DNA of 64,000 nucleotides from Candidatus Omnitrophota bacterium. GTDB taxonomy: Bacteria > Omnitrophota > Gorgyraeia > JAGLLT01. Shown here in pieces: positions 1-17,535 of the stretch (positions are counted from its first letter, which is position 1; every line of letters begins with the position of its first letter). Under the pieces are notes generated by a model, which saw only the letters and a list, made by a program, of their open reading frames with translations, searched no databases and was not told the DNA's origin. The position numbers and the translations under genes were made by a program. The stretch spans positions 248,319-312,318 of the forward strand of contig DAOVJY010000002.1 of assembly GCA_030632085.1 (NCBI GenBank). Reading direction: 5' to 3'.

Positions 1-59
1 CCCGGATTCCTCCGATTTCTTATTACTTTCCTATGATTTCCGTAACAAATTTATTTTAA

Positions 60-88
60 TTGACAAGGGATGAGTGAAGTGGTATATT
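60..88 (+). promoter_or_regulatory. sigma70-like promoter upstream of abiEi: TTGACA (60-65), 17-bp spacer, TGgTATATT (81-88)
   Basis: Near-consensus -35 and extended -10 with 17-bp spacing read directly from the sequence. Confidence 0.5.
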
Positions 89-140
89 GTATCCATTCAT
101 AGTAATTCCATTTGAACTGGAAATAAAAGGAAATAAAACA

Positions 141-932
141 ATGAACGCAAAGGGCTATTCTGAGCTTTCAAAAGACGCGGTGTATTTGCTGTCCCGATCA
201 GAATTTGAGAAGCAGAAGGTGATTACGACTAAATACGCGGTTAAAGTGTTGGGGAGCTACCGAAAAGCGGCCAGCATGCTTGGCGCGCTTGCTAAAAGAA
301 ACCGGCTTATCCAGCTAAGAAGAGGCCGGTATCTATTAGTGCCTTTAAGGGCCCCTAATCAGCTTTGGATGCCGAATGAGTACGTTGTCGCAGCCTTATG
401 GATGGATGAAGTCCCTTATTATATTGGGTATGTTTCGATGTATAACTACTGGGGATTTACGGAGCAAATTCCACAATCGGTTACTGTCTTAAACACAATG
501 AAAGAATGGAAACGAAACATCAAAAATATTAAGTATACAGCTGTTAAAATATCTCCTCGAAAAATGTACGGGATAAAAAAAATAAGAATTGATGAAGAAG
601 ACATCTGTATTAGTGACAAAGAACGCACACTTGTAGATTTTATATTTAAACCAATGGGGTCATGGGAGAATGTTCAGGCGGTTATTAACGGGCAAATCGG
701 TAAGATAGATATTCAAAAATTTATCCGCTATTTAATAAAATTCCCTGTAGCGGCAGTTCGTAAACGGGCGGGGCTTATGCTTGAGAGGGCCGGTGTGCCC
801 CAAAAAGACTTAGCTGAACTGAAAAAATCTATCGGCGCAAAAAACACATATATTAATTTTAATCCGTTTGTTAAGTCCCGAAAAGGGAAAGTGAATCAAT
901 GTTGGAAGGTTATCATCAATGGACAAGAATAA
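141..932 (+). CDS. abiEi: AbiEi-family antitoxin / transcriptional regulator (type IV TA). The ORF-track TTG at 87 lies inside the -10 box, so the ATG at 141 with an AAAGGA RBS is preferred.
   Basis: N-terminal wHTH ending in the RGRYLLVP motif typical of the AbiEi_4 domain. Overlaps the downstream AbiEii gene by 14 nt. Confidence 0.7.
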   Translation: MNAKGYSELSKDAVYLLSRSEFEKQKVITTKYAVKVLGSYRKAASMLGALAKRNRLIQLRRGRYLLVPLRAPNQLWMPNEYVVAALWMDEVPYYIGYVSMYNYWGFTEQIPQSVTVLNTMKEWKRNIKNIKYTAVKISPRKMYGIKKIRIDEEDICISDKERTLVDFIFKPMGSWENVQAVINGQIGKIDIQKFIRYLIKFPVAAVRKRAGLMLERAGVPQKDLAELKKSIGAKNTYINFNPFVKSRKGKVNQCWKVIINGQE

Positions 933-1782
933 ACTAAAGGATATTATCAATTTTATAGCTGATAAGCAGGGATTTCGCCCCGCGATTATAGAGAAGGATT
1001 ATCATTTGACCAGAATCCTTAACGCGGTTAATGAACATTTAAGCCGTGATATAATTTTTAAGGGCGGGACATTATTAAATAAAGCTTATTTGGATTATCA
1101 TCGATTAAGCGAAGATCTGGATTTTTCATATAGAAGCGATGCTGATGTTTCCGCGCGCGCCAAGAGATCATATGCCATAACATCAATCAGAAAGAAGATG
1201 CCTTCTTTTTTATCTTTTTTAGGGCTTACGAGTGAAAATCCCCAAGGGGAGGGATTTAATAATTCAACGCAGTATCTTTTCACTCTTCAATTTCAGTCAA
1301 TTATTATGAATCGTGAGGAGGGTATAAAGTTTGAAATATCATTGCGCCAGCCTTCTTTTTTGCCTCCTGTAACCGTACGGGTTAAACATTTTTATCAAGA
1401 CCCGTTCAGCGGAGAGGATTTGTTTCCACAGGGAAGTGTATTAGCGCTGTCGCTGGAAGAAGCCGTGGCGGAAAAACTGAAAGCCTCCATATCCCGCTTG
1501 ACACCCGCGATTAGAGATTATTACGATTTGGGGCATTTTATTAAAATAGGATTTGATTTCGCGCGGCCGGATTTACTAAAATTGGTTAATAAAAAATTGA
1601 AACTTGATGGATACAAAGGAGATTATTCTCATAATTTAGGCTTGTCCGACCAGGCAATTGAGGAACTAAAAAGAATCAGCGAAAGCGATCTTACGCCAAT
1701 GATCAGAGCTGATGAAAAGTTCGATTTAGATACGGTTTTAGTACATTTTAATAAGCTATTTGACAGGAATAAGGTGGAATAA
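919..1782 (+). CDS. abiEii: AbiEii/AbiGii-family nucleotidyltransferase toxin (DUF1814)
   Basis: IEKDYHLTRIL...FKGGTLLNKAY...RLSEDLDF matches the AbiEii NTase signature. Translationally coupled to abiEi. Confidence 0.85.
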   Translation: MDKNKLKDIINFIADKQGFRPAIIEKDYHLTRILNAVNEHLSRDIIFKGGTLLNKAYLDYHRLSEDLDFSYRSDADVSARAKRSYAITSIRKKMPSFLSFLGLTSENPQGEGFNNSTQYLFTLQFQSIIMNREEGIKFEISLRQPSFLPPVTVRVKHFYQDPFSGEDLFPQGSVLALSLEEAVAEKLKASISRLTPAIRDYYDLGHFIKIGFDFARPDLLKLVNKKLKLDGYKGDYSHNLGLSDQAIEELKRISESDLTPMIRADEKFDLDTVLVHFNKLFDRNKVE

Positions 1783-1879
1783 AATTTGTATTAATTGTGG
1801 GATGATTTTTTGGATGCGTAGCAATAGAGGGTTGAAGCAGTGACATTGCGCAAGTTCAAAAATTAAAATTATGGGGGAA

Positions 1880-1915
1880 GTGGGAAGAAAGAGAAATAGG
1901 TATCGTATGTCCCGA
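1880..1915 (+). repeat. REP/TIR-like repeat copy (GAAGAAAGAGAAATAgGTATcGTaTGTCCC); near-identical to the copy at 14882-14916
   Basis: Direct comparison with 14882-14916 and with the MITE right ends. Confidence 0.6.
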
Positions 1916-2066
1916 TTTTCCATATTTATGTTGTAGTTTATAATAAAATATTTGACAAATGATACTACTGGTAGTAACATATAAGAGATAACTAAAACAA
2001 AGTGGTGCGTTCGAAGGGGGAACCTCCACGATAAAATAAGTAAAACCTTCGGAAGCGGAGGTTTTT

Positions 2067-2975
2067 ATGCGTATAGAGCATGCAGAGGCGGCAATGAAAG
2101 ACGTTAAAATTAAACCATATTTTAAAGATAACGGATTTGAGCTCTATCTAGATGATTGCAGAGATTTCCTAAACAACCTACCAAAAGAATCAGTAGATAT
2201 GATATTTGCTGATCCACCTTATAATCTTTCAAACGGTGGATTTACATGCCACGCCGGTAAGATGGTATCTGTTAACAAGGGTAAGTGGGACCAGAGCAAA
2301 GGCCTTGATGAAGATTTAAAATTTCATGTTGAATGGATAGAGGCGTGCAGAAGAGTGCTTAAGCCTGGTGGCACTATTTGGATTAGCGGGACATATCATT
2401 CAATTTACCGTTGTGGCTATGCTCTTGAACTTACGGGTTATCATATTCTTAATGATATCTCATGGTTTAAACCTAATGCATCCCCAAATCTAAGCTGTCG
2501 TTTTTTCACAGCGAGCCATGAAACTCTTATATGGGCAAGGAAAGAGAAGAAAGCTAAGCATACCTTTAACTATAAGCAGATGGTAGACTGGGAAAAAAAT
2601 TACAAAAAAACCTTTAAGTGTGATAAAACAAATACATACCATGAGTGTGAAATCTTGCATGAAAAAGGTAAGCAGATGCGCTCAGTATGGGCTATTAATA
2701 CTCCAAGGCCAGTTGAGAAGCACTTCGGAAAACACCCTACCCAAAAACCTGAAGAACTCTTGAGAAGAATAGTTGTGGCAAGTACAAATAAGGGGGATTT
2801 AATTATAGACCCATTCACAGGAAGCTCTACAACAGGCCTTATAGCAAATCTTTATGGCAGAAAGTTTATAGGCATAGATAATGAAAAAGCCTATCTTGAT
2901 TTATCAGCTAAAAGATATAATGAGTTAAAAATGAACACGAAGAAAAAACAAGCAAGACAAATGGTGCACGCATGA
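2067..2975 (+). CDS. Type II DNA methyltransferase, beta class (N6-adenine or N4-cytosine)
   Basis: DMIFADPPYNL (motif IV, DPPY) precedes FTGSSTTGLIA (motif I, FxGxG). This motif order is typical of beta-class amino-MTases. Confidence 0.85.
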   Translation: MRIEHAEAAMKDVKIKPYFKDNGFELYLDDCRDFLNNLPKESVDMIFADPPYNLSNGGFTCHAGKMVSVNKGKWDQSKGLDEDLKFHVEWIEACRRVLKPGGTIWISGTYHSIYRCGYALELTGYHILNDISWFKPNASPNLSCRFFTASHETLIWARKEKKAKHTFNYKQMVDWEKNYKKTFKCDKTNTYHECEILHEKGKQMRSVWAINTPRPVEKHFGKHPTQKPEELLRRIVVASTNKGDLIIDPFTGSSTTGLIANLYGRKFIGIDNEKAYLDLSAKRYNELKMNTKKKQARQMVHA

Positions 2976-3496
2976 AAGAAGGAGGGGTGGGAGGCAGCAA
3001 AACAAAAACTGGTCTCCACTTTGAATCTCGAGTAAGCCTTGAAAAAGTAATCTCCGCACTTCCGGGCTATACCATATCAGATGATAGGGTATTTTTTCAA
3101 GGTGTAAAAGTTGCTGAACTTTATCAAAAGCACAAATTATACAAAAATCTTCTTAAACCCAATCACATAGATTACTCAGTAATTATTTCTAAAAAACTAC
3201 TCCCAGATGAAGCTATATTAATATTAAAAGATAAGACATTATACATAATAGAAATTAAATTTCAAAAGGTTTCAGGGTCTGTTGATGAGAAGCTTCAGAC
3301 CTGCGACTTTAAGTGCAGGGAATATAAAAAACTTCTTGCTCCATTAGGCATATCCGTTGAATATGTATATATATTAAATGATTGGTTTAATAAAAAAGAG
3401 TACAAAAATGTTCTTAATTATGTTAAATCAGTTGGATGTCATTATTTTTTTAATGAAGTGCCGCTAGAATTTCTAAACTTGCCAAAACCTGAATAG
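2972..3496 (+). CDS. Putative cognate Type II restriction endonuclease (small PD-(D/E)xK-like protein)
   Basis: Start overlaps the MTase stop (ATGA coupling). 174 aa with a D...IIEIKFQK segment compatible with a (D/E)xK catalytic motif. No recognisable family, so the specificity is unknown. Confidence 0.4.
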   Translation: MKEGGVGGSKTKTGLHFESRVSLEKVISALPGYTISDDRVFFQGVKVAELYQKHKLYKNLLKPNHIDYSVIISKKLLPDEAILILKDKTLYIIEIKFQKVSGSVDEKLQTCDFKCREYKKLLAPLGISVEYVYILNDWFNKKEYKNVLNYVKSVGCHYFFNEVPLEFLNLPKPE

Positions 3497-3675
3497 TTTA
3501 AAGGGGAACCTTGTATGGTATTGCACCCTTCATTCACCCTTGAAGTAAAACTGATTAAATTAAGTAAAAATCACGAGAAAAATCATAATAGCCTTAGAAG
3601 AATTGTGATTGATTCTTTTGTGAAAGAAAAGCTGGGCATGGCAATGGCGAAAATAGGTGATGATTTTATTTAAAA

Positions 3676-3699
3676 GTAATTAAGTATTGTGTCCCCGGA
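3676..3699 (+). repeat. REP/TIR-like repeat (AATTAAGTATTGTGTCCCCGGAA), copy 1 of a direct pair about 105 bp apart
   Basis: Matches the MITE right terminus TTAAGTGTTCTGTCCCCGGAA with two substitutions. Confidence 0.65.
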
Positions 3700-3756
3700 A
3701 CTATACAGCTTTTCTCGGAGGGATTGTATTCCAGTCCCAATAAAGCAGGAATTAAG

Positions 3757-3800
3757 GGGACGGTTCTATTTTAAAATAATTAAGTATTGTGTCCCCGGAA
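3757..3800 (+). repeat. Composite repeat: GGGGACGGTTCTATTTT block followed by REP/TIR-like AATTAAGTATTGTGTCCCCGGAA (copy 2)
   Basis: The GGGGACGGTTCTATTTT block recurs at 8609 and, degenerate, at 15571. The REP part matches 3676-3699. Confidence 0.65.
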
Positions 3801-3981
3801 TTACGTAAAAAGAAATAAATGTGGAATGTGGAGACTTGACCCCCATTGTGCTCTATTTTACTGATTTGTGATTCATGATAAGAAATATGGAAAATTTTCT
3901 TTCTTTCCATCTTATAAGAAACACTTGACAAATTGCATCATTTAATGTATAAGAGAAAGAAGAAAGTGAGGTGTTCAAATA

Positions 3982-4872
3982 ATGGAAGATAAAGACCAGA
4001 TAAAAGGATTTTTTGTCGAAGATGAACAATCATTCAAAAAAGAACAAGTCTTATCTTTAATTAACAGATGTAAAAAATATGCCAAACTTGTAGGTAGAAA
4101 AGGGCTTGTTCATATTGAAAAGAAAAATTTAACAGGCACAGACCAAATAAAGCTTTTTTTAATAACACGGCATTTGGGTGCAGACTTGGCAAAGTTAGAG
4201 CCTAATTTAAAGATTCCTTCTGAGATTGCAGATGTGCATACTTCTGAAATGGCAAAATTGTTATCTGTCTCTAATGAAAATGCTAGGACTAGAGCATCTG
4301 ATTTAATTCGTGATGGATTTGGACGTAAACCAAAAAAAGGATACATACGAGTATATTCATATCAAATTAGTAAATTTTTAGATTTACTTGAAAAAGGTGA
4401 ACAAAAAAAGGAAAGAGCCGCCAATAAAAAAACTTCCATTAAAAAAAGAGGGGTAAGAAAAATAATTGAAAATCCGAAGCTCAATGTTGACCAAGCGTTT
4501 AAGCGATTGTCTATAAATTTAGATGGTATTTTAGAAAAAAAACTTAAAGATTGTATTTTTTTCCAAGAAGATGCAAGCTTTAAATTTAATAAGAATTTTA
4601 CGGGGAAATCAAAACATAGTAAACAGACTAGAGGAATTCTATGCGCAGCCTATGTAATGTCTATTGGTTTAGGTTTACAGAGTTTTTCTAGCCGACAGAT
4701 AAAGGATGTTTGTTTTAATAGTAACATTGATGTAATGGGCTTGAATTATGCAACACGAGAATTAAAGAAGAGTGGATATATTTCTAAAGCGAGTAAATAC
4801 TCGCAAGATAATATAATCCTAGAAAAAGGTAAAGATAAGGCAAAAGAGATATTTAATGAGTTATGTGAATGA
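3982..4872 (+). CDS. Hypothetical protein: probable central winged-HTH (SEIADVHTSEMAKLLSVSNENARTRASDLIRDGF), lysine-rich linker, unknown C-terminal domain
   Basis: Long ORF with an AAAGTGAGG RBS. First gene of a three-gene operon bounded by REP copies upstream and a MITE downstream. Confidence 0.55.
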   Translation: MEDKDQIKGFFVEDEQSFKKEQVLSLINRCKKYAKLVGRKGLVHIEKKNLTGTDQIKLFLITRHLGADLAKLEPNLKIPSEIADVHTSEMAKLLSVSNENARTRASDLIRDGFGRKPKKGYIRVYSYQISKFLDLLEKGEQKKERAANKKTSIKKRGVRKIIENPKLNVDQAFKRLSINLDGILEKKLKDCIFFQEDASFKFNKNFTGKSKHSKQTRGILCAAYVMSIGLGLQSFSSRQIKDVCFNSNIDVMGLNYATRELKKSGYISKASKYSQDNIILEKGKDKAKEIFNELCE

Positions 4873-4954
4873 TTAAAATGAAATTATTGTAATTAAATTT
4901 ATCTAAGAGATTGATGGCATATATTTATTAAGACGATGTCCAAAAGGAGGAAAT

Positions 4955-5524
4955 GTGAAAAATATTACTGAAATCGATGTGATGAAAATTATTGATGACC
5001 ATTTTTCAAAAATACAAGATCGAGAGGCAAAGAATAGGATTCTTCGTTGGGCATGGGAGAAATTCTCAACTCAAGAGCTGCCCTTAGAAAGTGAAGAAAA
5101 AACCAAACAGAAAGATTCTAAAAAGAAAAAAGCACCTAAGAAAAATAATAAACAAAAGAAAAAAGTTAAATCTGGTCCTTGTTTAGTTAAAGATTTAAAC
5201 TTGAGGCCTTCAGGGGAAACAACTTTTAAGCAATTTGTACAAGACAAAAACCCTTCATCAAACCAAGAGAAATGCTTAGTAGCTGCTTATTATTTAAAGC
5301 AAAAACTAAAGAAAAAGACAGATGTCGATTCGATTTATACATGTTTTAAGGATGCGAAATGGCGAGTTCCATCTAATTTGGAAAATACACTTTGTGTTGT
5401 TGCCGTCCAAAAAGGTTGGCTTGATACAACTGACTCTAACGCCATAACAATACCAACCTTAGGTGAAAATTATATAGAACATGATTTGCCCAGAAAAGTA
5501 AAAGGAAAAAATAATCATGGTTAA
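4955..5524 (+). CDS. Hypothetical protein with a long poly-lysine linker (KKKKAPKKNNKQKKKVK) between two small domains
   Basis: ORF with a GGAGG RBS. Overlaps the next gene by 8 nt. Confidence 0.5.
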   Translation: MKNITEIDVMKIIDDHFSKIQDREAKNRILRWAWEKFSTQELPLESEEKTKQKDSKKKKAPKKNNKQKKKVKSGPCLVKDLNLRPSGETTFKQFVQDKNPSSNQEKCLVAAYYLKQKLKKKTDVDSIYTCFKDAKWRVPSNLENTLCVVAVQKGWLDTTDSNAITIPTLGENYIEHDLPRKVKGKNNHG

Positions 5525-6296
5525 AAATGCTTTCAATTTAACAAATTTACTTGGCAGTATTCCAGTTACATTAAAAAATGAATTGGTAAAAACTTTTAAT
5601 GAAATTGCACGAAATTATCGAGAACAACGCTGGGAACCATCGGAGTTAAATGGAGGTAAATATTGTGAGGTTGTTTACACCATTTTAAAAGGGTATACTG
5701 AGGGAAAATTTCCTTCAAAAGCAAGCAAACCGAAGAATATGGTAGATGCTTGCAATAAATTTGAGCAAATTCCTTCATCATCATTTCCGAGGTCAGTAAG
5801 GATTCAAATTCCTAGAATAATCATTGCTCTTTATGAAATACGTAACAATAGAGGCGTGGGGCACGTTGGTGGCGATGTTGACCCAAATCATATGGATGCT
5901 ACAATTGTGCTTTATATGGTTAAATGGATTATGGCTGAGTTGATCCGTTTATTTCATAATGTTAACACTGATATTGCAACTGAAGCAGTAGAACGAATTA
6001 CAGATAGGACTTTGCCTATTTTATGGAAAGTTGGCGGAAAAATTCGTGTGCTTGATACTTCTATTAACATGACAGAAAAGACACTAGTTGTTTTATATTA
6101 TAATCGAGATTCAGTCGCCGAAAATTTATTGGTTGATTGGGTAGAATACACAAATCTTTCTGTATACTGTAGAGACATTTTGCGGAAAGCCCATAAAAAT
6201 AAATTAATTGAATATGATAAAGCAAATAAACAAGTCACAATATCTCCCAAAGGCATAAAATACGTAGAAGATAATATAAATTTGGAAAAATTTTGA
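5517..6296 (+). CDS. Hypothetical protein with a possible HEPN-like R-x6-H motif (IRNNRGVGHVGG)
   Basis: The Rx4-6H spacing matches the HEPN RNase catalytic motif. Located in a defence island. No further homology recognised. Confidence 0.4.
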   Translation: MVKNAFNLTNLLGSIPVTLKNELVKTFNEIARNYREQRWEPSELNGGKYCEVVYTILKGYTEGKFPSKASKPKNMVDACNKFEQIPSSSFPRSVRIQIPRIIIALYEIRNNRGVGHVGGDVDPNHMDATIVLYMVKWIMAELIRLFHNVNTDIATEAVERITDRTLPILWKVGGKIRVLDTSINMTEKTLVVLYYNRDSVAENLLVDWVEYTNLSVYCRDILRKAHKNKLIEYDKANKQVTISPKGIKYVEDNINLEKF

Positions 6297-6391: not shown

Positions 6392-6720
6392 ACTTCCGGG
6401 GACAGAACACTTAATTGTTGAAAAGGCGTCATTGTTCTGATAGAATCTATGTATGGCAAGGATAGCGAGAATAGTTATTCCCAATCACCCTCATCATATA
6501 ATCCATCGCGGTAATCGCCGGGAAAAAGTTTTCTTTAGTGAAGACGACAAACAGGCTTACCTTTGTTTATTAACTAATCAGGCCAAGAAATCGGGAATAG
6601 AATTTTCTTTAGGGGATGAGAGATTTATTAAGAAGATTGAAGGAATTACCGGAAAGATATTGCAAAAAAATAGGCCGGGACATATGCAGAAAGATAGTTA
6701 AGTGTTCTGTCCCCCGAAGT
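6392..6720 (+). mobile_element. MITE-like element (about 320 bp) with about 23-bp terminal inverted repeats (ACTTCSGGGGACAGAACACTTAA) enclosing a 5'-truncated RAYT/IS200-like transposase remnant
   Basis: Left IR at 6392-6414 and right IR at 6698-6720 are reverse complements. The interior is 90% identical to the element at 10873-11198. Confidence 0.75.
6453..6701 (+). pseudogene. N-terminal fragment (82 aa) of a REP-associated tyrosine transposase (RAYT, IS200/IS605 Y1 family)
   Basis: MARIARIVIPNHPHHIIHRGNRREKVFF..DDK..YL.LL matches the RAYT N-terminus. It terminates long before the HuH/Y catalytic motifs. Confidence 0.7.
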
Positions 6721-6765: not shown

Positions 6766-7410
6766 ATGAGTGAGACTATACCTAAAGATCCCAAGATTTA
6801 TCATATTGTACATCTTGATAGATTGGAGTCGATTATTTCTAAACAGTATTTGTTAAGTGATACAGATGGTCAGCAATACGATTTGGACGGTACTACTATA
6901 GGAATGTCGAAAATAAAAGAACGAAGAATGTATAATAATTTTATGAATTATCCAGATCTTTGCGTAGGTGCATGTGTTCCTTTTTATTTTTGTCCACGAT
7001 CGATTATGTTATACATATTTTACGAGAATAATCATCCGGAGATTACGTATCGAGGAGGGCAGGAACCTATTGTTCATTTGGTAGCGGATTTACGTAAAAC
7101 AGTTACGTGGGCGGAATCTTTGGGCAAGCGCTGGGTATTTACTGATTCGAATGCAGGGTCATCCTATTTTAACGATTTTGCAAAATTAAACCAACTTAAT
7201 CAAATTGACTGGAACGCGTTAAGAGCAACATCTTGGTCAGCGGTTAAAGAAAAGAAGCAAGCCGAGTTTTTGATCGAAGAATGCTTTCCTTGGGAATTGA
7301 TAGAATGTATCGGTGTATATTCAATAGTGCAGTACCAACAGGTTGCTCAAGCACTCCAATCAGCAACACATCGACCACCCGTGAAGGTGATGCGTACCTG
7401 GTATTATTAG
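6766..7410 (+). CDS. darT: DarT, DNA ADP-ribosyltransferase toxin (DUF4433)
   Basis: IYHIVHLDRLESII...VPFYFCPRSIMLY...GGQEPIVHLV...FTDSN...EFLIEECFPWELIECIGVYS closely matches the DarT family. Confidence 0.85.
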   Translation: MSETIPKDPKIYHIVHLDRLESIISKQYLLSDTDGQQYDLDGTTIGMSKIKERRMYNNFMNYPDLCVGACVPFYFCPRSIMLYIFYENNHPEITYRGGQEPIVHLVADLRKTVTWAESLGKRWVFTDSNAGSSYFNDFAKLNQLNQIDWNALRATSWSAVKEKKQAEFLIEECFPWELIECIGVYSIVQYQQVAQALQSATHRPPVKVMRTWYY

Positions 7411-7425
7411 AAGGAGGAATGAAAT

Positions 7426-8484
7426 ATGATTATATTTAAAACAGGTAATCTTTTGACCGAAGACGTAGAAGCAATTGTTAATACAGTTAATTGTGTTGGT
7501 ATTATGGGACGAGGAATTGCGCTTCAGTTCAAAAAAAGGTTCCCGGAAAATTTTAAAGTATACGCAGCAGCCTGTAAAAAAAAGGCGATTCTTCCCGGTA
7601 AAATGTTTGTTTATAAGACTGACTCACTTATAAATCCAAAGTATATAATCAGTTTCCCTACAAAGCGGCATTGGCGTGGAGCCAGCAGAATGGAAGATAT
7701 TGAGAATGGTTTGCAGGATTTGGTTAAAGTCATTAAAGATTTGAAGATTCAATCCATCGCCCTACCTCCGCTAGGGTGTGGGCTTGGGGGCCTTGATTGG
7801 AATACGGTACGCGTACGGATTGAATTTGTCCTGAATGAGTTGCGCGATGTCGATGTTGTTGTTTTTGAGCCAAAAGGGGCTCCGACTCCTGAAGAGATGG
7901 TAAAAAACAGGAAAGTACCTAAAATGACTCCTGGGCGCGCAGCATTGGTAGAACTGATGCATCGTTATTTTTTAGGGCTTCTTGATCCCTTTATAACGCT
8001 CCTGGAAGTACACAAATTGATGTATTTCCTTCAAGAAAGCGGAGAGAGCCTTCGTTTACAGTACGCAAAAGCACCATATGGTCCATATGCGAAAAATCTT
8101 CGCCATGTGCTCAATGCTATAGAAGGCCATCTCATTTTTGGTTACGCCGACGGAGAAGATAAGCCGGATAAGCAACTCAAGCTGGTGCCTGGTGCTTATG
8201 AAGATGCGACACGGTTTCTTAATGAGCACAAAGGAACTAAGGAACATTATGACAAAGTATCTGATCTTGTAGACGGATTTGAGACTCCTTTTGGTATGGA
8301 ATTATTATCAACAGTGCATTGGGTAATAACAAAAGAATCAGCACATTCTTTTAGTGAACTTATTACGAAGGTATATGATTGGAATAAGCGCAAGAAGCAG
8401 TTTTCTCAGCGACAGATTCAATTAGCCGTCAAGGTGTTAGAGCAAAAAAAATGGATTAATATTACGAATTGGAGTGAAGTTTAA
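7426..8484 (+). CDS. darG: DarG antitoxin: N-terminal macrodomain (ADP-ribosylglycohydrolase) plus C-terminal DarT-neutralising domain
   Basis: AIVNTVNCVGIMGRGIALQFKKRFPE is a macrodomain signature. Sits immediately downstream of darT. Confidence 0.85.
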   Translation: MIIFKTGNLLTEDVEAIVNTVNCVGIMGRGIALQFKKRFPENFKVYAAACKKKAILPGKMFVYKTDSLINPKYIISFPTKRHWRGASRMEDIENGLQDLVKVIKDLKIQSIALPPLGCGLGGLDWNTVRVRIEFVLNELRDVDVVVFEPKGAPTPEEMVKNRKVPKMTPGRAALVELMHRYFLGLLDPFITLLEVHKLMYFLQESGESLRLQYAKAPYGPYAKNLRHVLNAIEGHLIFGYADGEDKPDKQLKLVPGAYEDATRFLNEHKGTKEHYDKVSDLVDGFETPFGMELLSTVHWVITKESAHSFSELITKVYDWNKRKKQFSQRQIQLAVKVLEQKKWINITNWSEV

Positions 8485-9482: not shown

Positions 9483-9483
9483 G

Positions 9484-10005
9484 ATGTCCATTGTGTTGAC
9501 AATTCTAATATTAGGTTGTTGCGCGCTTTTTTTATATATCTTAATTAAATCATTAATTAACGATAGAAATATAATCTATGTTGGCGATAAGAACAAAGTT
9601 TTAGTATATAATGAGGGAGATATAAGGATTATTGGAAGACCCGATTATATAAAAAGGGAAGAGAATAATTATGTCGCATACGAATATAAGAGCCTAAAAA
9701 TAAAATCCAAAAATGCCTATTTGGATCATAAGTTGCAATTAGCGTGCTATATGCGACTGGTAGAAAAGACCTTTAAACAGAAGCCTGATTATGGAATAAT
9801 TACTTATGGAAACAAGAGAAGATTTAAAATTAGTAATACTTTGGAACTACAGCAGAAATTGGATAAGAGAATCGACAGGCTTAAAGAGCTAAAAACTGGA
9901 AGAGCCGTGCCTGTTAGAAGCCATAATGTGTTTGAGAAATGCTTTGCTTGTAAGTATTATCCTATCTGTAAACACCGATTAGGGAAAAAGAAAATGGAGG
10001 GTTAA
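9484..10005 (+). CDS. Cas4/RecB-like PD-(D/E)xK nuclease, C-terminal half: TM helix, motif II (GRPDYI), motif III (EYK), QhxxY (QLACY), and a C-x2-C-x5-C cluster
   Basis: The motif order and the CFACKYYPIC spacing match the Cas4 4Fe-4S/DUF83 family. Starts 1 nt after the upstream stop, in a different frame. Confidence 0.65.
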   Translation: MSIVLTILILGCCALFLYILIKSLINDRNIIYVGDKNKVLVYNEGDIRIIGRPDYIKREENNYVAYEYKSLKIKSKNAYLDHKLQLACYMRLVEKTFKQKPDYGIITYGNKRRFKISNTLELQQKLDKRIDRLKELKTGRAVPVRSHNVFEKCFACKYYPICKHRLGKKKMEG

Positions 10006-10006
10006 A

Positions 10007-10405
10007 GTGATAATACCAAATGAAGTAAAAAATTTATTTGATAAACAGTCTTTAGTTGCCTTTGGCACCGCGGACAAGCAAGGAAATCCAAATGTTGTTC
10101 CTATATTCTGGAAAGAGATCATCGATGGGGAAAGAATTTTGTTAATCGATAATTTTATGAAGATGACCAAAAAAAACCTTTTAGAAAATGGCAATGTTTG
10201 CCTGGCTTTTTGGGATTCAAAAACAAATGAGGCTTATAAGATTGAGGGGGAAGCTGTCTACTATGCACAAGGTTCGATTTATGAACAAGGCAAAAAATTT
10301 ATACAATCAAAAAAACCAGCAGCAATTCCAAAAGGAGTTGTTGAAATTAAAGTAAAAGAAATTTACACTATAAAACCGGGTTCCGACGCGGGTAAAAGAT
10401 TATAA
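10007..10405 (+). CDS. Pyridoxamine 5'-phosphate oxidase-like FMN-binding split-barrel protein
   Basis: LVAFGTADKQGNPNVVPIFW...ERILLIDNFM..TKKNLLENGNV is typical of the PNPOx-like family. Confidence 0.55.
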   Translation: MIIPNEVKNLFDKQSLVAFGTADKQGNPNVVPIFWKEIIDGERILLIDNFMKMTKKNLLENGNVCLAFWDSKTNEAYKIEGEAVYYAQGSIYEQGKKFIQSKKPAAIPKGVVEIKVKEIYTIKPGSDAGKRL

Positions 10406-10449
10406 AAAGCGGTCACCTTTTTCATTGAGAAGATAAGAGAAAATTAGTA

Positions 10450-10481
10450 GAAAGATAGTTAAGTGTTCTGTCCCCTGAAGT
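10450..10481 (+). repeat. Solo MITE right end (AAAGATAGTTAAGTGTTCTGTCCCCTGAAGTC)
   Basis: 31 of 32 identity to the MITE right end at 6689-6720, with no partner left end nearby. Confidence 0.7.
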
Positions 10482-10494
10482 CTTACAATTCAGT

Positions 10495-10750: not shown

Positions 10751-10900
10751 TATGGAATATAAAAAGCATCCCCTTACTTATGCGGAACAAGCCGATCTCC
10801 TCATTTCACGCAAACTATCCGCTGACCGTAATGCTCTCATTGAAACGCTTAAAAATGTTAATTATTATCGGAGTTCCGGGGACAGAACACTTAATTATTG
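10751..10900 (+). pseudogene. N-terminal 49-codon fragment of an Abi_2-family (AbiD/AbiF-like) abortive-infection gene, truncated by MITE insertion
   Basis: MEYKKHPLTYAEQADLLISRKLSADRNALIETLKNVNYYRSSG matches the Abi_2 N-terminus (LT.EEQ..LL..RGL....YYRLSGY). The reading frame runs straight into the MITE left IR at 10873. Confidence 0.5.
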
Positions 10901-11198
10901 AAAAGGTGTTGTTGCTTTGATAAAATCTATGTATGACAAGGATAGCGAGAATAGTTGCTTCCAATCACCCCAATCATATAATCCATCGCGGCAATCGCCG
11001 GGAAAAAGTTTTCTTTAATAAAGATGACAAACAGGTGTATCTTCGTGTATTAACTAATCAGGCCAAGAAATCGGGAATAGAATTTTCTTTAGGGGATGAG
11101 AGGTTTATTAAGAAGATTGAAGGAATTACCGGAAAGATATTGCAAAAAAATAGGCCGGGACCTATGCGGAAAGATAGTTAAGTGTTCTGTCCCCGGAA
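10873..11198 (+). mobile_element. Second copy of the RAYT-derived MITE, with terminal inverted repeats
   Basis: About 90% identical to 6392-6720. IRs GGGGACAGAACACTTAA / TTAAGTGTTCTGTCCCC. Confidence 0.75.
10933..11181 (+). pseudogene. RAYT/IS200-like transposase N-terminal fragment (82 aa), copy 2
   Basis: MTRIARIVASNHPNHIIHRGNRREKVFF... is identical in architecture to the fragment at 6453-6701. Confidence 0.7.
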
Positions 11199-11751: not shown

Positions 11752-12342
11752 ATGACTAAAACAGATATTTTGCTTATGTTATTATTTTCAGATAGAGCTG
11801 CTCCGATAGTAGGTACAACCCGCTTACAAAAGCTCTTATTTCTGAGCGAACACGAAAGTGAAGTTAAGTGCGATAAGGAATCTTTTAATTTTGAAGCCTA
11901 CAAGTTTGGGCCAGTGTCTAAAACGCTATACGACGATATTGAGTTTTTAGTAAACGTAGGTTTTTTAGAAAAAACTGGAGAGGACGCAAGTATTGATATA
12001 TATTCTTTAGATGACTTAGATAGTATTAATGTTGAAAATTTAATTGAAACTTCAGAAAACGAAAAAGTAGACCTAATTAGCGAAAAGGAAGAAGGAATAT
12101 TTTCAGAAGATGACGATGAGAACAAAGCTACCACAGAAGATGATCTGACAGTTTATAAAATCACAGATAAAGGTATTGGATACCTAAAAGAAAATAATCT
12201 AATAGGAGCAAAAGAAGCCAAAGAAATAGAAAATATAAAAAAGCGCTATGGAAAGAAATCTCTTATTGAATTATTGCGATATGTATATATGAAATATCCA
12301 AAATATACTACTGAGTCAGAAATAAAAGATGAATTATTATGA
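11752..12342 (+). CDS. Panacea-domain (DUF4065, SocA-like) putative antitoxin PanA with an acidic C-terminal extension
   Basis: TTRLQKLLFLSEHE...FEAYKFGPVSKTLYDDI matches the Panacea signature (KLQKLLYyaq...w.yGPv). Confidence 0.65.
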   Translation: MTKTDILLMLLFSDRAAPIVGTTRLQKLLFLSEHESEVKCDKESFNFEAYKFGPVSKTLYDDIEFLVNVGFLEKTGEDASIDIYSLDDLDSINVENLIETSENEKVDLISEKEEGIFSEDDDENKATTEDDLTVYKITDKGIGYLKENNLIGAKEAKEIENIKKRYGKKSLIELLRYVYMKYPKYTTESEIKDELL

Positions 12343-12884
12343 GTAATGGAAATAAAGAATTCAGTAATATTGGATTTATGCTATCTATTTTTGGGCCTAG
12401 TGCTATTTCTGCAATGTTTGCAATAATTACAAAACCACTCACTGAAAAATCAACCTTTGATGCTTTACGTAAAAACTTTCTAGAAACAATACGATTTCGC
12501 ATGGCTGCCGAGATAGCAGTGATGTTGCCTCCAAAGACAGGAAGAACGGTGAATGATGATTATGTTTCAATGTGTAAAACAAAACTAAATGAATATTTCG
12601 CAAATAATTCTGTTTTGTTGGTTGATTTTTTATACTCGGAAAAGTTATATATGTCCTACGGAAAGCTTTTTATTATATTTAAATACGCTATAGTGCTAAT
12701 TCCAGTGGTAGCTATCTTATGCGGCATCATATTGATTATCTATTTTCGTGATACGCTCAGTATAAAAAATTGTGGATTGTTTGTGTTTTTTTCTCTAGTG
12801 TTTGTTTTTGCAACTTGGCTTTTTAAAGAGCGTCGGCGAGATCAATACAGTGATTTATGTTCAAAATATGAAGTGGTTAAATAG
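12339..12884 (+). CDS. Membrane protein (N-terminal soluble part plus 2-3 TM helices); candidate PanT-type toxin partner
   Basis: ATGA start/stop overlap with the Panacea gene. Hydrophobic helices at residues about 108-170. Confidence 0.4.
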   Translation: MSNGNKEFSNIGFMLSIFGPSAISAMFAIITKPLTEKSTFDALRKNFLETIRFRMAAEIAVMLPPKTGRTVNDDYVSMCKTKLNEYFANNSVLLVDFLYSEKLYMSYGKLFIIFKYAIVLIPVVAILCGIILIIYFRDTLSIKNCGLFVFFSLVFVFATWLFKERRRDQYSDLCSKYEVVK

Positions 12885-13310
12885 GTGACTATTAACACTA
12901 AGTCAAATCCTTCTGAAAAAAAGATAGTAGCAGCGGTGGCTAAATTATTGCGGAAAAATGGGTATATAAATCAAAAAACTGAGGCCCAGATCTGTGAAAG
13001 ATTCATTGATTTAGTCTGTTGGGATAAAAGAAAGAAAAAGATTGTTGCTGTAGAGGCAAAGGTAAAGGCCCCATCAAAAGCATTTGAGCAGGCAATGCGA
13101 TATAGATATGTTGCAGATCATGTGTATGTTGCAATATTGAGAAATGGGTGTAATAAGAGAGCGATAGAATTGTCAGATAGAACTGGAATTGGATTAATTT
13201 TCGTAAGACGCGACTCATTAGAACGTTATTATGCAAAGATAGAAATAGAACCTGTCAAGTCTGAGTTAAAAAACGAAAAGCTTGCAAAGTATTTTTTTAG
13301 TGATGTTTAG
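12885..13310 (+). CDS. Hjc/Mrr-like PD-(D/E)xK nuclease-fold protein (141 aa)
   Basis: E...L...GY...FIDLVCW...IVAVEAKVK reproduces the archaeal Holliday-junction resolvase Hjc motif order (E, D, ExK). GTG start abuts the upstream stop. Confidence 0.45.
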   Translation: MTINTKSNPSEKKIVAAVAKLLRKNGYINQKTEAQICERFIDLVCWDKRKKKIVAVEAKVKAPSKAFEQAMRYRYVADHVYVAILRNGCNKRAIELSDRTGIGLIFVRRDSLERYYAKIEIEPVKSELKNEKLAKYFFSDV

Positions 13311-13331
13311 ATTATAGTGTTGGAGGTTGTT

Positions 13332-14744
13332 ATGGAGAAAAGTTTCTTATTAAGAATTGGTTCTAATGCAGAAAAGCAATATGTAAAAAAAATGGGGTCA
13401 CTTTTTTCAGGATTGGTGGTTAGAGCGAACTATTTTGAATCTGCGCCCGGAATGTTAAGTGCATTATTTTTAAAATTTGATTCTTTAAATCCATCAAAAG
13501 GATTTATTATTGATCCCGTCACGTATGTTTTTATGCTTGACTCAAAATATATCAGAAGCTGGCAAAAGATTAATGGGGAGAAATCGGAGGAAAAAATAAG
13601 AAAAGATTTACATATAGATGTTTCAGAAAATGTCCCAAATGAGTGGGTGCGTACAATACAAGATCCTACCGAAAAGCAAAAAAATAAAGTTGAAATCTAT
13701 AATATAAAAAAGGCTTATCGTAAATTAGCAGATTCCTATTTTACTCCTAACATGGCCCATGAAATAGGGAAACGGTCACTTGTCAAGGAAGATTTTAGTG
13801 AGCAAGATATACGTGAATTTGTAATGAAAGTGATCAATTACCAAGTGCAGGCGATTAGTACGCGGTATGATACAGCAAAATATTCCGATTTTAAAGCTAT
13901 TGTTCCACGCCCGCTGATGATACTTTCGCCCTATTTTTTGATAAGAAATCAAAGTGATTTAGACTTTATGGAAAGAATATGGAAGCGATTTGATTCCCAA
14001 TATACCAGAGATGATGGGGCCATTGTAGTACATTGTGCGGCAGAATTTTTTGAGATTAATTATCGGTCAATTTTAGAAGTTGTAGCTAAATTGAGTAAAA
14101 AAAATATTTTTTTGTGGATTAATAAATTTGACGAAAAAAAAGTTTCATCTACTCAACTTGATGGATATATAAAATTTGTAAGCAGTGCATATGATCAGGG
14201 CATAAGTGTAACTAACCTGTATGCGGGGGGATTATCCTCTTTTCTTTTTCCATTTGGTCTTACTGGAATGGTAAATAATATAGGATATGGTTTGCAGCGT
14301 GATGCTGAACCAGTTCAAGGAGGAATACCAACAGCTCAATTTTATATACCTAAATTACATATTCGCGCACAGGTTTTAGCAACTTACGATTTATTAGTAA
14401 AAAATGAATTAGGCGGTACAGCAAAAGACTTTTATCGTAACGTTTGTTCTTGTCCGATATGTAAAAAAGGAATCCGCGAGGAATTAAGCGATTTTATCAG
14501 TTTTTATGGTGAAGCGGATTATCCTAAAAGCAATTCAGAAAGCTCACGAAAGTATCCAACATCAAAAGCATTAAAGCGATGTTTTTTCCATTTTCTTTTT
14601 TCTAGATTGAAAGAATACAAATGGGCGATAAAGGCAAGTAAGCAGGAAGCAATAGATTTGCTAGATAGCGAAATAGCTTTATGGCGTACCGATAAAGATC
14701 ATCTTCAGAGGATGAGAGATGCGTTAGATGCAATAGCAAAATAG
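13332..14744 (+). CDS. Hypothetical 470-aa protein with a CSCPIC (CxCxxC) motif and a downstream His. The start at 13332 follows a GGAGG RBS.
   Basis: Long ORF, last gene of a four-gene operon. The CxCxxC...H spacing resembles the Zn site of TGT/DpdA-like transglycosylases; this is a weak inference. Confidence 0.5.
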   Translation: MEKSFLLRIGSNAEKQYVKKMGSLFSGLVVRANYFESAPGMLSALFLKFDSLNPSKGFIIDPVTYVFMLDSKYIRSWQKINGEKSEEKIRKDLHIDVSENVPNEWVRTIQDPTEKQKNKVEIYNIKKAYRKLADSYFTPNMAHEIGKRSLVKEDFSEQDIREFVMKVINYQVQAISTRYDTAKYSDFKAIVPRPLMILSPYFLIRNQSDLDFMERIWKRFDSQYTRDDGAIVVHCAAEFFEINYRSILEVVAKLSKKNIFLWINKFDEKKVSSTQLDGYIKFVSSAYDQGISVTNLYAGGLSSFLFPFGLTGMVNNIGYGLQRDAEPVQGGIPTAQFYIPKLHIRAQVLATYDLLVKNELGGTAKDFYRNVCSCPICKKGIREELSDFISFYGEADYPKSNSESSRKYPTSKALKRCFFHFLFSRLKEYKWAIKASKQEAIDLLDSEIALWRTDKDHLQRMRDALDAIAK

Positions 14745-14881
14745 ATAAAAGTGGGAAAAGGGGTCAGGGGTCAGAGTCATTTTTCATTCTGGCAGATAAG
14801 TATTGTATTGTTAGATTTTCGCATGTCTCAGATTAATTAGGAAGCGTCCCTATTAAAATGAGAAGAAGAGAGCGGGGCGCA

Positions 14882-14916
14882 GGAAGAAAGAGAAATAAGT
14901 ATTGTGTCCCTAGAAT
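14882..14916 (+). repeat. REP/TIR-like repeat (GGAAGAAAGAGAAATAAGTATTGTGTCCCTAGAA)
   Basis: Matches 1880-1915 and the family consensus. Confidence 0.6.
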
Positions 14917-14973
14917 TTCGCCAAAGAAAAGTTACAGGAAATATTTAATAAAAAACTAGAAAGAAAAAATATA

Positions 14974-15537: not shown

Positions 15538-15570
15538 TAGTAAAAAAATAAAAGAAGGTGGCGAATTAAA

Positions 15571-15636
15571 GAGACGGTTCTATCCTATAACGGTAAAGCT
15601 ACGGTGGACAAGTTTTTTAAAAAAATTGGCAGAAAG
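15571..15636 (+). repeat. Degenerate copy of the GGGGACGGTTCTAT...TTTTTTAAAAAAATTGGCAGRAA intergenic repeat
   Basis: Compare 8609-8645. Confidence 0.5.
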
Positions 15637-15645
15637 ACACAATAA

Positions 15646-16158
15646 ATGAATATAAAATCAGGAGACATATTATTATTTAAAGCTGAAAAAGGTATATCCA
15701 GGCTCATTGCCTGGGGCACAAACAGCAAGTATTCGCATGTGGCGGTGTGTGTGTCGGCTGAGATGAACCTTGCTATAGAAGCTATGGCAGGTGGGGTGAG
15801 GGCGAGAGATATAAGAACGATAGAAGAGCCGTATGATATATATAGAATTAAAGAGGGACATAGTTATAATCTAAATAAGACTATTTCATTTCTGGTGAGT
15901 AAGCTGAATTTAAAATATGATTACTTAGGTGTATTTTTTCTTGGATTTATAAAGCTTATGTCAAAGATTGGCAAGCCGCTGAAAAAGGCGGCGAATAAGT
16001 GGCAGATAGACAGGGATTATTTCTGCTCGGAGTTATGCTATAAGGCTTTTTATAATGGCGGTAATCTGGATATTGTGCCTGATACTGATGAGGCAGATGT
16101 TACTTCGCCGGGTGATATTTCTAAAAGTTCCATAGTGGAACTAATAGCTAATGGCTAA
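15646..16158 (+). CDS. YiiX/YebB-like permuted papain-fold peptidase (C92 family)
   Basis: GDILLFKAEKGISRLIAWGTNSKYSHVAV and DYFCSELCYKAF resemble E. coli YiiX (GDIIFQ...WSHTGI; YCSELV). Confidence 0.5.
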   Translation: MNIKSGDILLFKAEKGISRLIAWGTNSKYSHVAVCVSAEMNLAIEAMAGGVRARDIRTIEEPYDIYRIKEGHSYNLNKTISFLVSKLNLKYDYLGVFFLGFIKLMSKIGKPLKKAANKWQIDRDYFCSELCYKAFYNGGNLDIVPDTDEADVTSPGDISKSSIVELIANG

Positions 16159-16188
16159 TAGCTAAGAGCGTACGAATGGAGATATAGA

Positions 16189-17316
16189 TTGAAATTTAAG
16201 GGTGCGGTAGTTGTTTTTATATTAACCCTTGCCGTAATTGGTGGGGGTTTTTGTTTTGCTGAGGATTTTTATTCGGCGCAGGTGCGCGATATATCCGATC
16301 GGGAATATGAGCAGGCTGTTATTGAGTTGATTGATAACGCCCAAGAGTCGATAGTTGTTGGGATGTACTATATCAGTACGCGGTTAAAGGCGAATAATCC
16401 GGTTAAGATGTTGTTGAATGATTTGGTTGAGGCCGAAGAGCGGGGCGTAGAGGTCAAAATATATTTAAATACAAAGTTTCCTGATGTGAGTTATGAAGAG
16501 CTTGTTGGTAGAGATGAATTTAAAAGGCTGCAGGATGCGGGGTGTGAGCTGTATTTTATTCCGCCGGGGCGTAAGCTGCACGATAAAGTTGTTGTTGTGG
16601 ATAGGCGTTATGTGGTTGAGGGGAGTATGAACTGGAGTATTGTAGCGCTCAAGAATAATTTTGAGTCGGTAACGCTGATTAATTCACCGGGGCTTGGTAA
16701 GGAGAAAATAGCAAGGTTAGAGAAGATTTATGAGATACAGAAGAAAAAGGAAGAGGATAAAGAAAGAGAACCTCTTTATATTGATAGTATCATTGAAAAA
16801 ATAGAGGTGAAAAAGGCTTTACTGGAGGATGAGAAGTATTTTCCGATGATGCTTAAGAGAAGTGACCGCAGGGCAATGGACCTGTATCTGATACTGCTTG
16901 CATATAGTAAGAAGTTGGATAAGATTGAGTTTTTCCTCAGATTAGAGGATGTTGGATTGGGACTGGGGTTGCCGGCGTCATGGGATGACGAAGCATTGAG
17001 GCGTCAGGTAATAAGGGCGTTGCGGACGCTGGAGAAAAAGTATAATCTTATAGAAGTTGAGTTTTATCATTCAAGTGACGCATATATAACCATTTTACCT
17101 ATTTTAGGAGAGAGTTTTGCGATAGAGACAAAGAGTATTGGCTCACGTGATAGAAAAATCCCTCAACGGGTTAAGTTTTTGCTCCTGATAAAGGCGCTTT
17201 TGGAGAAAGAGGGCAAGGACTTGGATTCGGTGCCGCAGAAAGAGATTATGCGGCGTTTTCATATCGCGGAGCGGACGCTGGAGAAAGCGATGAATTCACC
17301 AGAGGTGAATGGCTGA
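16189..17316 (+). CDS. Secreted/membrane-anchored phospholipase D-family protein with a single HKD motif (Nuc-like) plus an unknown C-terminal domain
   Basis: N-terminal signal/TM. LHDKVVVVDRRYVVEGSMNWS matches HxK(x4)D(x6)GSxN. Confidence 0.7.
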   Translation: MKFKGAVVVFILTLAVIGGGFCFAEDFYSAQVRDISDREYEQAVIELIDNAQESIVVGMYYISTRLKANNPVKMLLNDLVEAEERGVEVKIYLNTKFPDVSYEELVGRDEFKRLQDAGCELYFIPPGRKLHDKVVVVDRRYVVEGSMNWSIVALKNNFESVTLINSPGLGKEKIARLEKIYEIQKKKEEDKEREPLYIDSIIEKIEVKKALLEDEKYFPMMLKRSDRRAMDLYLILLAYSKKLDKIEFFLRLEDVGLGLGLPASWDDEALRRQVIRALRTLEKKYNLIEVEFYHSSDAYITILPILGESFAIETKSIGSRDRKIPQRVKFLLLIKALLEKEGKDLDSVPQKEIMRRFHIAERTLEKAMNSPEVNG

Positions 17317-17535
17317 TGGCTGATGGCTAATAGCTTATGGCTAATAGCTAAGAGCAAAGGGCAAAAATAAAAAACTAAAAGCAGAAACAAAAAAAGAAAC
17401 AAAAAGCAAGTAGCTTTTAGCTGATGGCTCATAGTAAAAGCACAAAGCAAAAACAAAAAACAAACAAGTAACGATAACCAAAAAACAAAATATAAGAAGC
17501 AAGTTGCAAGATACAAGAGGCAAGCTGTAAGTGCG
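17317..17535 (+). repeat. A-rich, T-poor low-complexity tract with GGCTAATAGCTAAGAGC-type short repeats
   Basis: Runs of AAAAACAAA and reiterated GGCTAAT/TAGC k-mers. Similar tracts at 20662-20800 and 24295-24480. Confidence 0.6.

Follow-up and report, generated by a model that had tools for sequence, protein, structure and literature searches.

Repeats of probable TIRYT origin at the gene-module junctions of an Omnitrophota defence island, and their possible part in cassette exchange

We analysed a 64,000-nt stretch of contig DAOVJY010000002.1 (the window), which comes from an Omnitrophota bacterium and carries at its left end a defence island whose gene modules are separated by short repeats. 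These repeats are very probably the ends, right-end fragments and internally deleted copies of a transposable element of the TIRYT/TIRtron type; TIRtron denotes here a RAYT-like Y1 (HUH) tyrosine transposase gene between inverted repeats starting GGGGACAS. With a probability of about 60%, the elements in the island mark the junctions of exchangeable blocks in this lineage and probably help in their exchange.

The island occupies a hypervariable locus that spans from the tmRNA, PIF1 and YsxC genes to a PLD-like gene and VF530, with YsxC on one side of the island and the PLD-like gene and VF530 on the other. Proteins closely homologous to its YsxC and to its PLD-like protein bear Omnitrophota annotations. 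The DNA 5' of the window, read from a matching metagenome scaffold in ENA, carries smpB, the tmRNA gene, a Phd/ParE pair, an exonuclease, PIF1, YsxC and Fic, in that order. In relatives with a YsxC 84% identical, YsxC is followed by a radical SAM gene and then by VF530; in this genome, ~18 kb separates YsxC from VF530. AbiE, a restriction-modification (R-M) pair, DarTG, an Abi fragment, a Panacea module and a DrmC-like PLD gene, with Phd/ParE and Fic upstream, identify the region as a defence island. Modules were annotated by Pfam and PADLOC, and the assignments in a first-pass annotation made from the sequence alone (AbiEi/Eii, N6_N4 methylase with PD-(D/E)XK nuclease, DarT/DarG, Cas4-like, PNPOx, SocA/Panacea, PLD-like) stand. 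Between the modules lie copies of a 20-mer, TAAGTRTTSTGTCCCCGGAA, a 49-nt mini-element, GGGGACGGTTCTATTTTAAAGTAATTAAGTATTGTGTCCCCRGAATT, and two miniature inverted-repeat transposable elements (MITEs), arranged as follows.

87..1782, plus strand: AbiEi/AbiEii module (domain search)
1883..1920, plus strand: degenerate right-end remnant after AbiEii, 79% identical over 38 nt to 14882-14919
2067..3496, plus strand: N6/N4 DNA methylase and small PD-(D/E)XK-like protein, the R-M pair (domain search)
3655..3703, plus strand: mini-element copy with decayed left half, 20-mer at 3681-3700; 86% identical to 3755-3803
3754..3802, plus strand: 49-nt mini-element, left half GGGGACGGTTCTATTTT plus right inverted repeat, 20-mer at 3781-3800
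3982..6296, plus strand: three-gene operon (296, 189 and 259 aa), an uncharacterised candidate defence module; no Pfam match, weak PADLOC candidate match (PDC-M16B, 3e-4)
6394..6718, plus strand: MITE 1, internally deleted TIRtron with inverted ends 6394-6414 and 6698-6718
6766..8484, plus strand: DarT/DarG (DarT 2e-59, Macro domain 9e-26)
8579..8644, plus strand: two outer-end-like tandem copies of CTTCCGGGTG, the mini-element left half and the 23-mer TTTTTTAAAAAAATTGGCAGGAA, in that order
9066..9130, minus strand: decayed doublet, a left-type end (20-mer 9068-9087, minus) facing a degenerate right end
9210..10405, plus strand: small membrane protein, Cas4-like nuclease and PNPOx-fold protein (Pfam/PADLOC)
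10449..10483, plus strand: right-end remnant retaining 11 nt of element interior, 97% identical to 6688-6722
10752..10873, plus strand: start of an Abi-family gene (N-terminal ~40 codons), broken off at the left end of MITE 2; tblastn against plasmids matches 'Abi family protein' (E 1e-4 and 6e-3)
10874..11198, plus strand: MITE 2, internally deleted TIRtron with inverted ends 10874-10898 and 11174-11198
11752..14744, plus strand: four-gene module led by SocA/Panacea (Pfam/PADLOC)
14796..14822: further degenerate copy (repeat finding)
14850..14919, plus strand: right-end remnant with decayed transposase C-terminal codons, 20-mer at 14896-14915
15563..15635, plus strand: mini-element left-half-like sequence and 23-mer, directly upstream of a C92 peptidase gene
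16189..17316, plus strand: PLD-like (DrmC-like) gene, the conserved right-hand anchor of the variable locus
17658..17903, plus strand: VF530 gene, the first beyond the island, adjoining YsxC/radical SAM in relatives

At up to three mismatches the 20-mer matches the window nine times (3681+, 3781+, 6394-, 6699+, 9068-, 10460+, 10874-, 11179+ and 14896+), against a chance expectation from dinucleotide shuffles of 0.02 on average and one at most, and between 15 and 64 kb of the window it has no match at this threshold. Degenerate copies occur in the island besides these nine. When intergenic gaps of at least 60 nt are counted, partly scored by direct reading of the sequence, repeat-derived sequence is present in 8 of the 9 gaps of the island and in none of the 16 gaps in the remaining 46 kb (Fisher's test, ~8e-6). 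The repeats had been noticed in the first-pass annotation at essentially every module boundary, which this count bears out for nearly all junctions; the stronger claim that each module is bounded by them gives way at one element, which abuts the truncated Abi gene. Of the individual copies it had called, the one at 1880 proves to be related sequence in degenerate form, and the supposed 20-mer at 8576 is in fact the tandem pair of CTTCCGGGTG, which resembles outer-end duplications found elsewhere. Its second repeat family is real (3749-3776, 8602-8629 and 15563-15590); it constitutes the left half of the mini-element and is accompanied by the 23-mer TTTTTTAAAAAAATTGGCAGRAA at 8622 and 15613. 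A third variant, AAAAGGTGTCTGTCCCCTTTAA, has three copies in the DNA immediately before the window, one each behind the tmRNA gene, ParE and Fic; the toxin-antitoxin pair, standing between the first two, is thus flanked by direct copies.

Both MITEs are 325 bp long and they are 92% identical, with inverted ends of 21-25 nt. MITE 1 contains an open reading frame (ORF) of 82 aa at 6453-6701, a promoter-like site at 6418-6446 and an outer-end duplication at 6383-6403, and the corresponding features of MITE 2 lie at 10933-11181, 10898-10926 and 11190-11210. The composite unit at 8579-8644 is located directly upstream of a membrane-protein gene (ATG 8683). In three unrelated loci (window 9100-9150, L142 ~11540-11590 and L151 ~475-520; fetched loci carry numbers with the prefix L) a conserved motif, GGGAGTCCTGAGTATTTTYGAAGRG, stands in place of the right-repeat part GTGTCCCC, and may represent another small element inserted into the repeat.

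Segments between repeats behave as units when related Omnitrophota contigs are compared: the cassette-level differences between relatives that the first-pass annotation had anticipated do exist, and their breakpoints coincide with elements. Loci L144 and L140 have 575 nt in common at 91% identity, starting at the exact left edge of one element, passing a small DUF1353-like gene and fading within the next element, with unrelated flanks. L025 and L135 have in common a unit of an element and a 94-aa gene, which also starts exactly at the element's left edge; in L135 this unit lies ~60 nt past the 3' end of the tmRNA gene, and the homology stops where the next element cuts a small zinc-ribbon ORF. 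The YsxC protein is identical in L123, L125 and L126 and in L122 and L124, and the two groups are wholly different upstream of PIF1, with a repeat doublet bearing an outer-end duplication at the breakpoint. In L157, two mini-elements flank the PLD-like gene amid core genes. Truncated genes adjoin elements at MITE 2 (the Abi fragment), in L127-129 (a radical SAM stub of 44 aa), in L158 (an HsdR stub) and in L135 (the zinc-ribbon ORF). Since the breakpoints fall at left edges, often beside truncated genes, they support turnover of element-bounded cassettes.

Homologues of the PLD-like gene (75-83% identical) adjoin very different gene sets in relatives: RadC, a type I R-M system with GmrSD, and SMODS in L142; NurA, a methylase, RadC, an R-M system and RhuM in L154; core genes in L157; and smpB-tmRNA in L158. 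The locus is therefore a hot spot for turnover. Contigs with the PLD-like gene (proteins P0127-P0200) are mostly just 1-12 kb long, an indication that this variable, repeat-rich locus regularly interrupts assemblies. Integration of the whole island directly at the tmRNA gene was considered and dropped, because the PIF1-YsxC genes between the two are conserved core genes.

The identity of the elements is apparent from a full-length relative in an Omnitrophota metagenome-assembled genome (L049), consisting of a left end (20-mer on the minus strand at 3776), an ORF of 220 aa and a right end (20-mer on the plus strand at 4650). The encoded protein matches Y1_Tnp of Pfam (2.4e-10) and REP_Tyr_transpos of NCBIfam (8e-14) and shows HVH and RYIxxNP motifs; against the RayT equivalog NF047646 it scores 51.8 bits, under the cut-off of 80. 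The 82-aa ORFs of the window align to residues 1-51 and ~166-214 of this protein, that of MITE 1 being composed of the N-terminal 51 aa and the C-terminal ~27 aa. As they cover only the two ends of the L049 protein, the HUH/tyrosine core has been lost and the copies are non-autonomous. A word-filtered homologue search for an intact partner transposase, with the 82-aa ORF as query, gave five short proteins, and a 636-nt metagenome contig holds an N-terminal fragment, 80% identical, of an apparently longer transposase gene. Intact TIRYT genes are present in other Omnitrophota genomes (L012, L049 and L087).

TIRYT genes were described as RAYT-like genes that lie, within 'TIRtrons', between inverted repeats sharing GGGGWSAS (PMC3733652, Di Nocera et al. 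2013); PMC6006769 also describes this motif. The repeat ends here, GGGGACAC or GGGGACAG, fit this consensus; as with TIRtrons, the repeats also occur singly, in pairs and in groups in the genome, and the protein matches Y1_Tnp with RAYT-like motifs in its N-terminal part. In the classification of Quentin et al. 2018 (PMC6006769), TIRYT probably corresponds to the TnpA-REP-like proteins of subclass 2.1, which are reported to possess a C-terminal HTH-like extension (Bac_DnaA_C/HTH_23/HTH_28). The L049 protein has an extension of ~80 aa after its Y1 domain, with no Pfam HTH at E up to 1. The element class is already known, and the RAYT origin proposed in the first-pass annotation was essentially right in that the transposase is RAYT-like and the 82-aa ORFs are its gutted genes; the type is TIRYT, below the RayT cut-off. 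In the TIRYT literature that we found there is no report of a 25-nt repeat invariant across phyla, of internally deleted 325-bp derivatives, of outer-end duplications, of a one-ended 49-nt derivative in fixed orientation upstream of defence-type or other genes, of breakpoints at element edges or of a link to defence islands or cassettes, and a literature search for the repeat sequence itself gave no match.

The repeats belong to a RAYT-like class and are not true REP (repetitive extragenic palindromic)/RAYT elements. With REP/RAYT and REPIN systems (Nunvar 2010; Bertels and Rainey 2011; Ton-Hoang 2012) they share the transposase superfamily, the intergenic location, the derivation of short non-autonomous repeats from the flanks of the gene, and doublets that form long hairpins. 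Their 25-nt unit, AATTAAGTATTGTGTCCCCNGAATT, differs in lacking a GTAG/CGTC-tagged palindrome of 20-40 nt, and single ends do not fold, so that the term REP used in the first-pass annotation does not apply. Moreover, the repeat is common to many phyla, not lineage-specific with a single-copy RAYT, the L049 protein falls short of the RayT threshold, and the copy number here appears modest. Solo ends fold no better than shuffles, whereas symmetric doublets form a perfect 25-bp hairpin; the 49-nt mini-element forms a 7-bp stem only (z-score -0.9), and an Rfam search found no family besides tRNAs.

The mini-element is probably a one-ended derivative that unites the last transposase codons with the right inverted repeat; judged against the ends of full-length genes, its left half probably descends from the final codons K-K-P-G-P. 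Four co-oriented copies in the Omnitrophota contig L025, 92-96% identical to the one at 3754-3802, separate small accessory modules beside core genes, and a metagenome scan yielded 22 further mini-element loci. All 23 Omnitrophota-like loci have the mini-element on the G-rich strand, with the same orientation throughout each locus, and the coding sequence around it amounts to 74 kb on the same strand versus 8 kb on the opposite one. A co-oriented ORF starts within 150 nt of 24 of the 28 copies (median distance 25.5 nt), compared with 8 of 28 in a mirrored control, and the upstream stop codon is usually no more than ~15 nt away. Twenty-three downstream proteins were scanned, leaving out an amidase, an 893-aa protein and one duplicate. 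They include AbiGi, HEPN_AbiU2, KAP NTPase, FRG, RadC, GIY-YIG/RAMA and DUF5677 proteins, and about half have no known domain.

When one genome per species was scanned, the exact 20-mer appeared in at least 120 stretches from at least 15 phyla. Hosts among the matches listed, to which the cross-phylum counts given below also refer, are Omnitrophota, Planctomycetota, Elusimicrobiota, Alpha-, Gamma- and Deltaproteobacteria, Clostridia, Desantisbacteria, Aminicenantes, Spirochaetota, Ignavibacteria, Nitrospirae, Saccharibacteria, Hydrogenedentota and Binatia, with one cultured isolate, Desulfatibacillum alkenivorans. There was no exact match in 2.9 million viral contigs, and blastn of the repeat against 72,556 plasmids gave none either. 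Conservation beyond the searched pattern defines the 25-nt unit, identical across these phyla, with sharp edges (L002-L121). The commonest copies read AATTAAGT, and the GTGTTCT variant carried by the 325-bp elements of the window is rare (1 of 151 copies). Full-length transposases beside identical repeats are 45-59% identical to the L049 protein; an invariant repeat next to proteins this divergent points to recognition by the protein, through what may be a very constrained protein-DNA interface.

A further property is seen at the outer side of the repeats, where the junction with the flank is tandemly duplicated in 32 of 146 copies, compared with 1 of 146 on the inner side of the same copies. 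The inner side served as the control since swapping of flanks is invalid when flanks carry partial repeats. The duplications have a period of 7-28 nt, most commonly 10, and occur in the window at 8579-8598 as well as at the two MITEs, and elsewhere in L009, L038, L045, L058, L060, L073, L079, L120 and others. They could be phased binding sites or the result of faulty nicking and rejoining.

In the reading that we favour, the DNA from one element to the next would be the unit that is gained, lost or replaced, and new blocks would enter or leave by recombination at the elements. Two routes can be envisaged: RecA-type homologous recombination on the 25-50 nt of shared sequence after uptake of DNA from relatives, or strand transfer catalysed by a TIRYT whose gene lies elsewhere in the genome. 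The elements would then probably be facilitators and markers of turnover, not a requirement for it.

Several results weigh against this reading. The closest orthologous island (L154-156, PLD-like protein 83% identical) has different defence genes, and it lacks all three repeat variants as well as any other repeat family at boundaries; its defence genes turned over without the repeats, which are therefore not necessary for island assembly. Searches of the island against all fetched loci by blastn and tblastn found no window cassette in a second context, the only homologues being Fic-like, AbiEi-like, C92 and PLD-like. The breakpoint evidence comes from a handful of metagenome contig pairs, in which mis-assembly or chimeric joins at repeats are possible. 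The orientation of the mini-element relative to genes and relative to replication is confounded in these genomes: the plus strand carries almost all genes of the window, over whose whole length GC skew is positive (0.08-0.33), so that gene direction is inseparable from replication direction in the lineage. No intact TIRYT, and hence not the intact RAYT that the first-pass annotation had proposed to look for, is present within the 64-kb window, which holds just the two gutted 82-aa ORFs, and exact-protein look-ups found neither of these outside the island among indexed assemblies.

The cross-phylum matches add to these objections. Neighbours of the 20-mer are mostly ordinary or housekeeping genes. 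Polarity relative to neighbouring genes is unbiased (38 on the same strand versus 35 on the opposite strand), and replication-strand-specific insertion was rejected on GC skew (46 versus 65 copies, and 14 versus 15 at strong skew). Enrichment of defence genes near copies, which the first-pass annotation had held out as a test, came to an unconvincing hint of toxin-antitoxin genes when the Pfam content of 150 neighbouring and 150 distant ORFs was compared (Polbeta 3, PhdYeFM 2). Repeat-mediated assembly of the island, as proposed there, keeps the support of the breakpoints at elements and is weakened by the closest orthologous island and by the dispersal of the repeat beside ordinary genes.

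The alternative that survives best, though we consider it rather unlikely, is passive accumulation, in which TIRtron-derived MITEs and debris pile up where they are tolerated, or came with foreign DNA, and have no role in moving modules. The copies are overwhelmingly intergenic (126 of 158) in DNA that is ~85% coding, and many are decayed. Their ordinary neighbours across phyla and the island that turned over without them are also as this explanation would have it, and one element interrupts or truncates an Abi gene as any transposon might. It sits poorly with homology whose two limits, left and right of a shared segment, coincide exactly with element edges, and with the strict rule of orientation and position kept by the mini-element. 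Nor was a simple pair of filled and empty sites found: in each of the few cases of presence/absence difference, the neighbouring genes had changed too.

An active HUH cassette system is unlikely, though several features suit it. In such a system, a TIRYT acting in trans would nick two co-oriented right ends, free the genes and one end as single-stranded DNA, and re-insert them at another end, with an outcome like that of integron cassettes or of one-ended IS91/ISCR transfer. The arrays are co-oriented, the unit begins exactly at the left edge of an element and extends rightwards, the 25-nt repeat is invariant beside transposases that have diverged, intact TIRYT genes exist in Omnitrophota, and aberrant nicking and rejoining could produce the outer-end duplications. 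On the other side, TIRYT activity is nowhere described in the literature that we found, an intact gene is missing from the window, and neither circular junctions nor duplicates of a window cassette turned up. Whereas IS200/IS605 and REP substrates form hairpins, neither solo ends nor mini-elements do so to a significant degree; orientation across phyla, moreover, shows no tie to GC skew. A broader form of the idea, which we regard as doubtful, is that Omnitrophota and possibly other uncultured phyla use integron-like gene capture based on a Y1 HUH transposase, with the mini-element as recombination site. An element together with the gene(s) downstream would be excised and inserted there by a TIRYT supplied in trans, building co-oriented defence arrays next to the tmRNA gene, and the outer-end tandem duplications would be scars of the reaction.

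It is less likely still that the mini-element is a regulatory element kept by selection upstream of accessory genes as a promoter, operator or 5' leader, a reading that is compatible with the other explanations. The short median distance to a co-oriented start codon accords with such a role, as does the fit of the element into the space that separates the upstream stop codon from the downstream ribosome-binding site. The 325-bp elements, moreover, retain a promoter-like TTGAAA-N17-TAGAAT/TAAAAT with TG, pointing at DarT and at the Panacea module. Within the 49-nt element, however, no sigma-70-like site is called, and promoter-like sites in the region are no commoner than in shuffles; there is no significant fold and no Rfam family, and the breakpoints at element edges are left unexplained.

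An integron-type array, with the repeats as attC sites recombined by IntI, is ruled out for practical purposes, since R''/L''-L'/R' attC symmetry is absent and neither the ORFs of the island nor the 9 kb before it encode an integrase or any other recombinase domain. The fold is weak, the commonest copies lack a GTTRRRY core, and the repeats are ends of a Y1 transposase element. What holds of the integron comparison drawn in the first-pass annotation is the architecture of short, co-oriented cassettes, mostly of accessory or defence genes, that are split by a conserved repeat of ~50 nt and differ between relatives. It differs in that IntI, attI and attC are missing, the repeat is 5' of the unit and derived from a transposon end, and any enzyme involved would be an HUH nuclease.

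Other known systems offer partial parallels. IS91/ISCR elements are likewise of the HUH family, with a single end followed by variable cargo and with truncated genes at the far junction; they use Y2 transposases and have no inverted repeats, whereas TIRYT is Y1. IS200/IS605 elements lack inverted repeats, carry subterminal hairpins and are oriented with the replication strand. The elements here have inverted repeats, and their orientation across phyla is not linked to GC skew; in Omnitrophota the mini-element does follow the G-rich strand, which is confounded with gene direction. Intergenic MITEs such as the Correia elements of Neisseria, ERIC and RUP are short inverted repeats in spacers, some with outward promoters, that affect neighbouring genes and mark points of rearrangement. 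They are mobilised by DDE transposases and make target duplications, whereas none is evident at the elements here.

If the reading of exchangeable blocks holds, TIRYT elements, which are named but functionally uncharacterised in the literature found, would be tied to defence-gene turnover in a candidate phylum for which metagenomes are almost the only source of knowledge. Either sequence, the 25-nt repeat or the 49-nt mini-element, would then serve as a simple marker of variable cassette arrays for mining new defence genes, and the constrained protein-DNA interface would be directly testable. Should the elements be active recombination sites, they would represent a second, mechanistically unrelated route to integron-like cassette arrays. 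Even if they are only debris, the result accounts for the assembly breaks at this locus in these genomes.

A number of smaller features were also recorded. Just upstream of the SocA/Panacea gene (~11530-11740), an HTH_XRE frame (HTH_3, 1e-7) with an internal stop is a decayed regulator, a pseudogene. The PLD-like gene is bracketed by a low-complexity direct repeat, CTAATAGCTAATGGCTAATAGCTAAGAGC, at 16140-16169 and 17312-17369, whose copies overlap the final codons of the C92 peptidase ORF and of the PLD-like ORF. A 51-nt repeat with a good sigma-70 appearance (TTGCTT, 17 nt, TGnTATAAAT) occurs at 10476-10526, 17528-17578 and 18415-18465, and its first copy directly follows the right-end remnant with the 20-mer at 10460. 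Upstream of the island, ~120-155 nt downstream of YsxC and before the Fic gene, GTTGTCATTTA is present as a triple direct repeat (L001 7876-7910) that may be an operator. In Ca. Undivivens industriae (L057 1709-2700), a left and a right repeat enclose a gene with an RF-1 domain (ArfB-like) immediately before PIF1; an RF-1-domain gene also occurs in the window, at 26427-26843, where no repeats are nearby. Finally, seven tRNA genes (Pro, Arg, His, Arg, Lys, Leu and Gly) are clustered on the plus strand of the window at 39662-41214.

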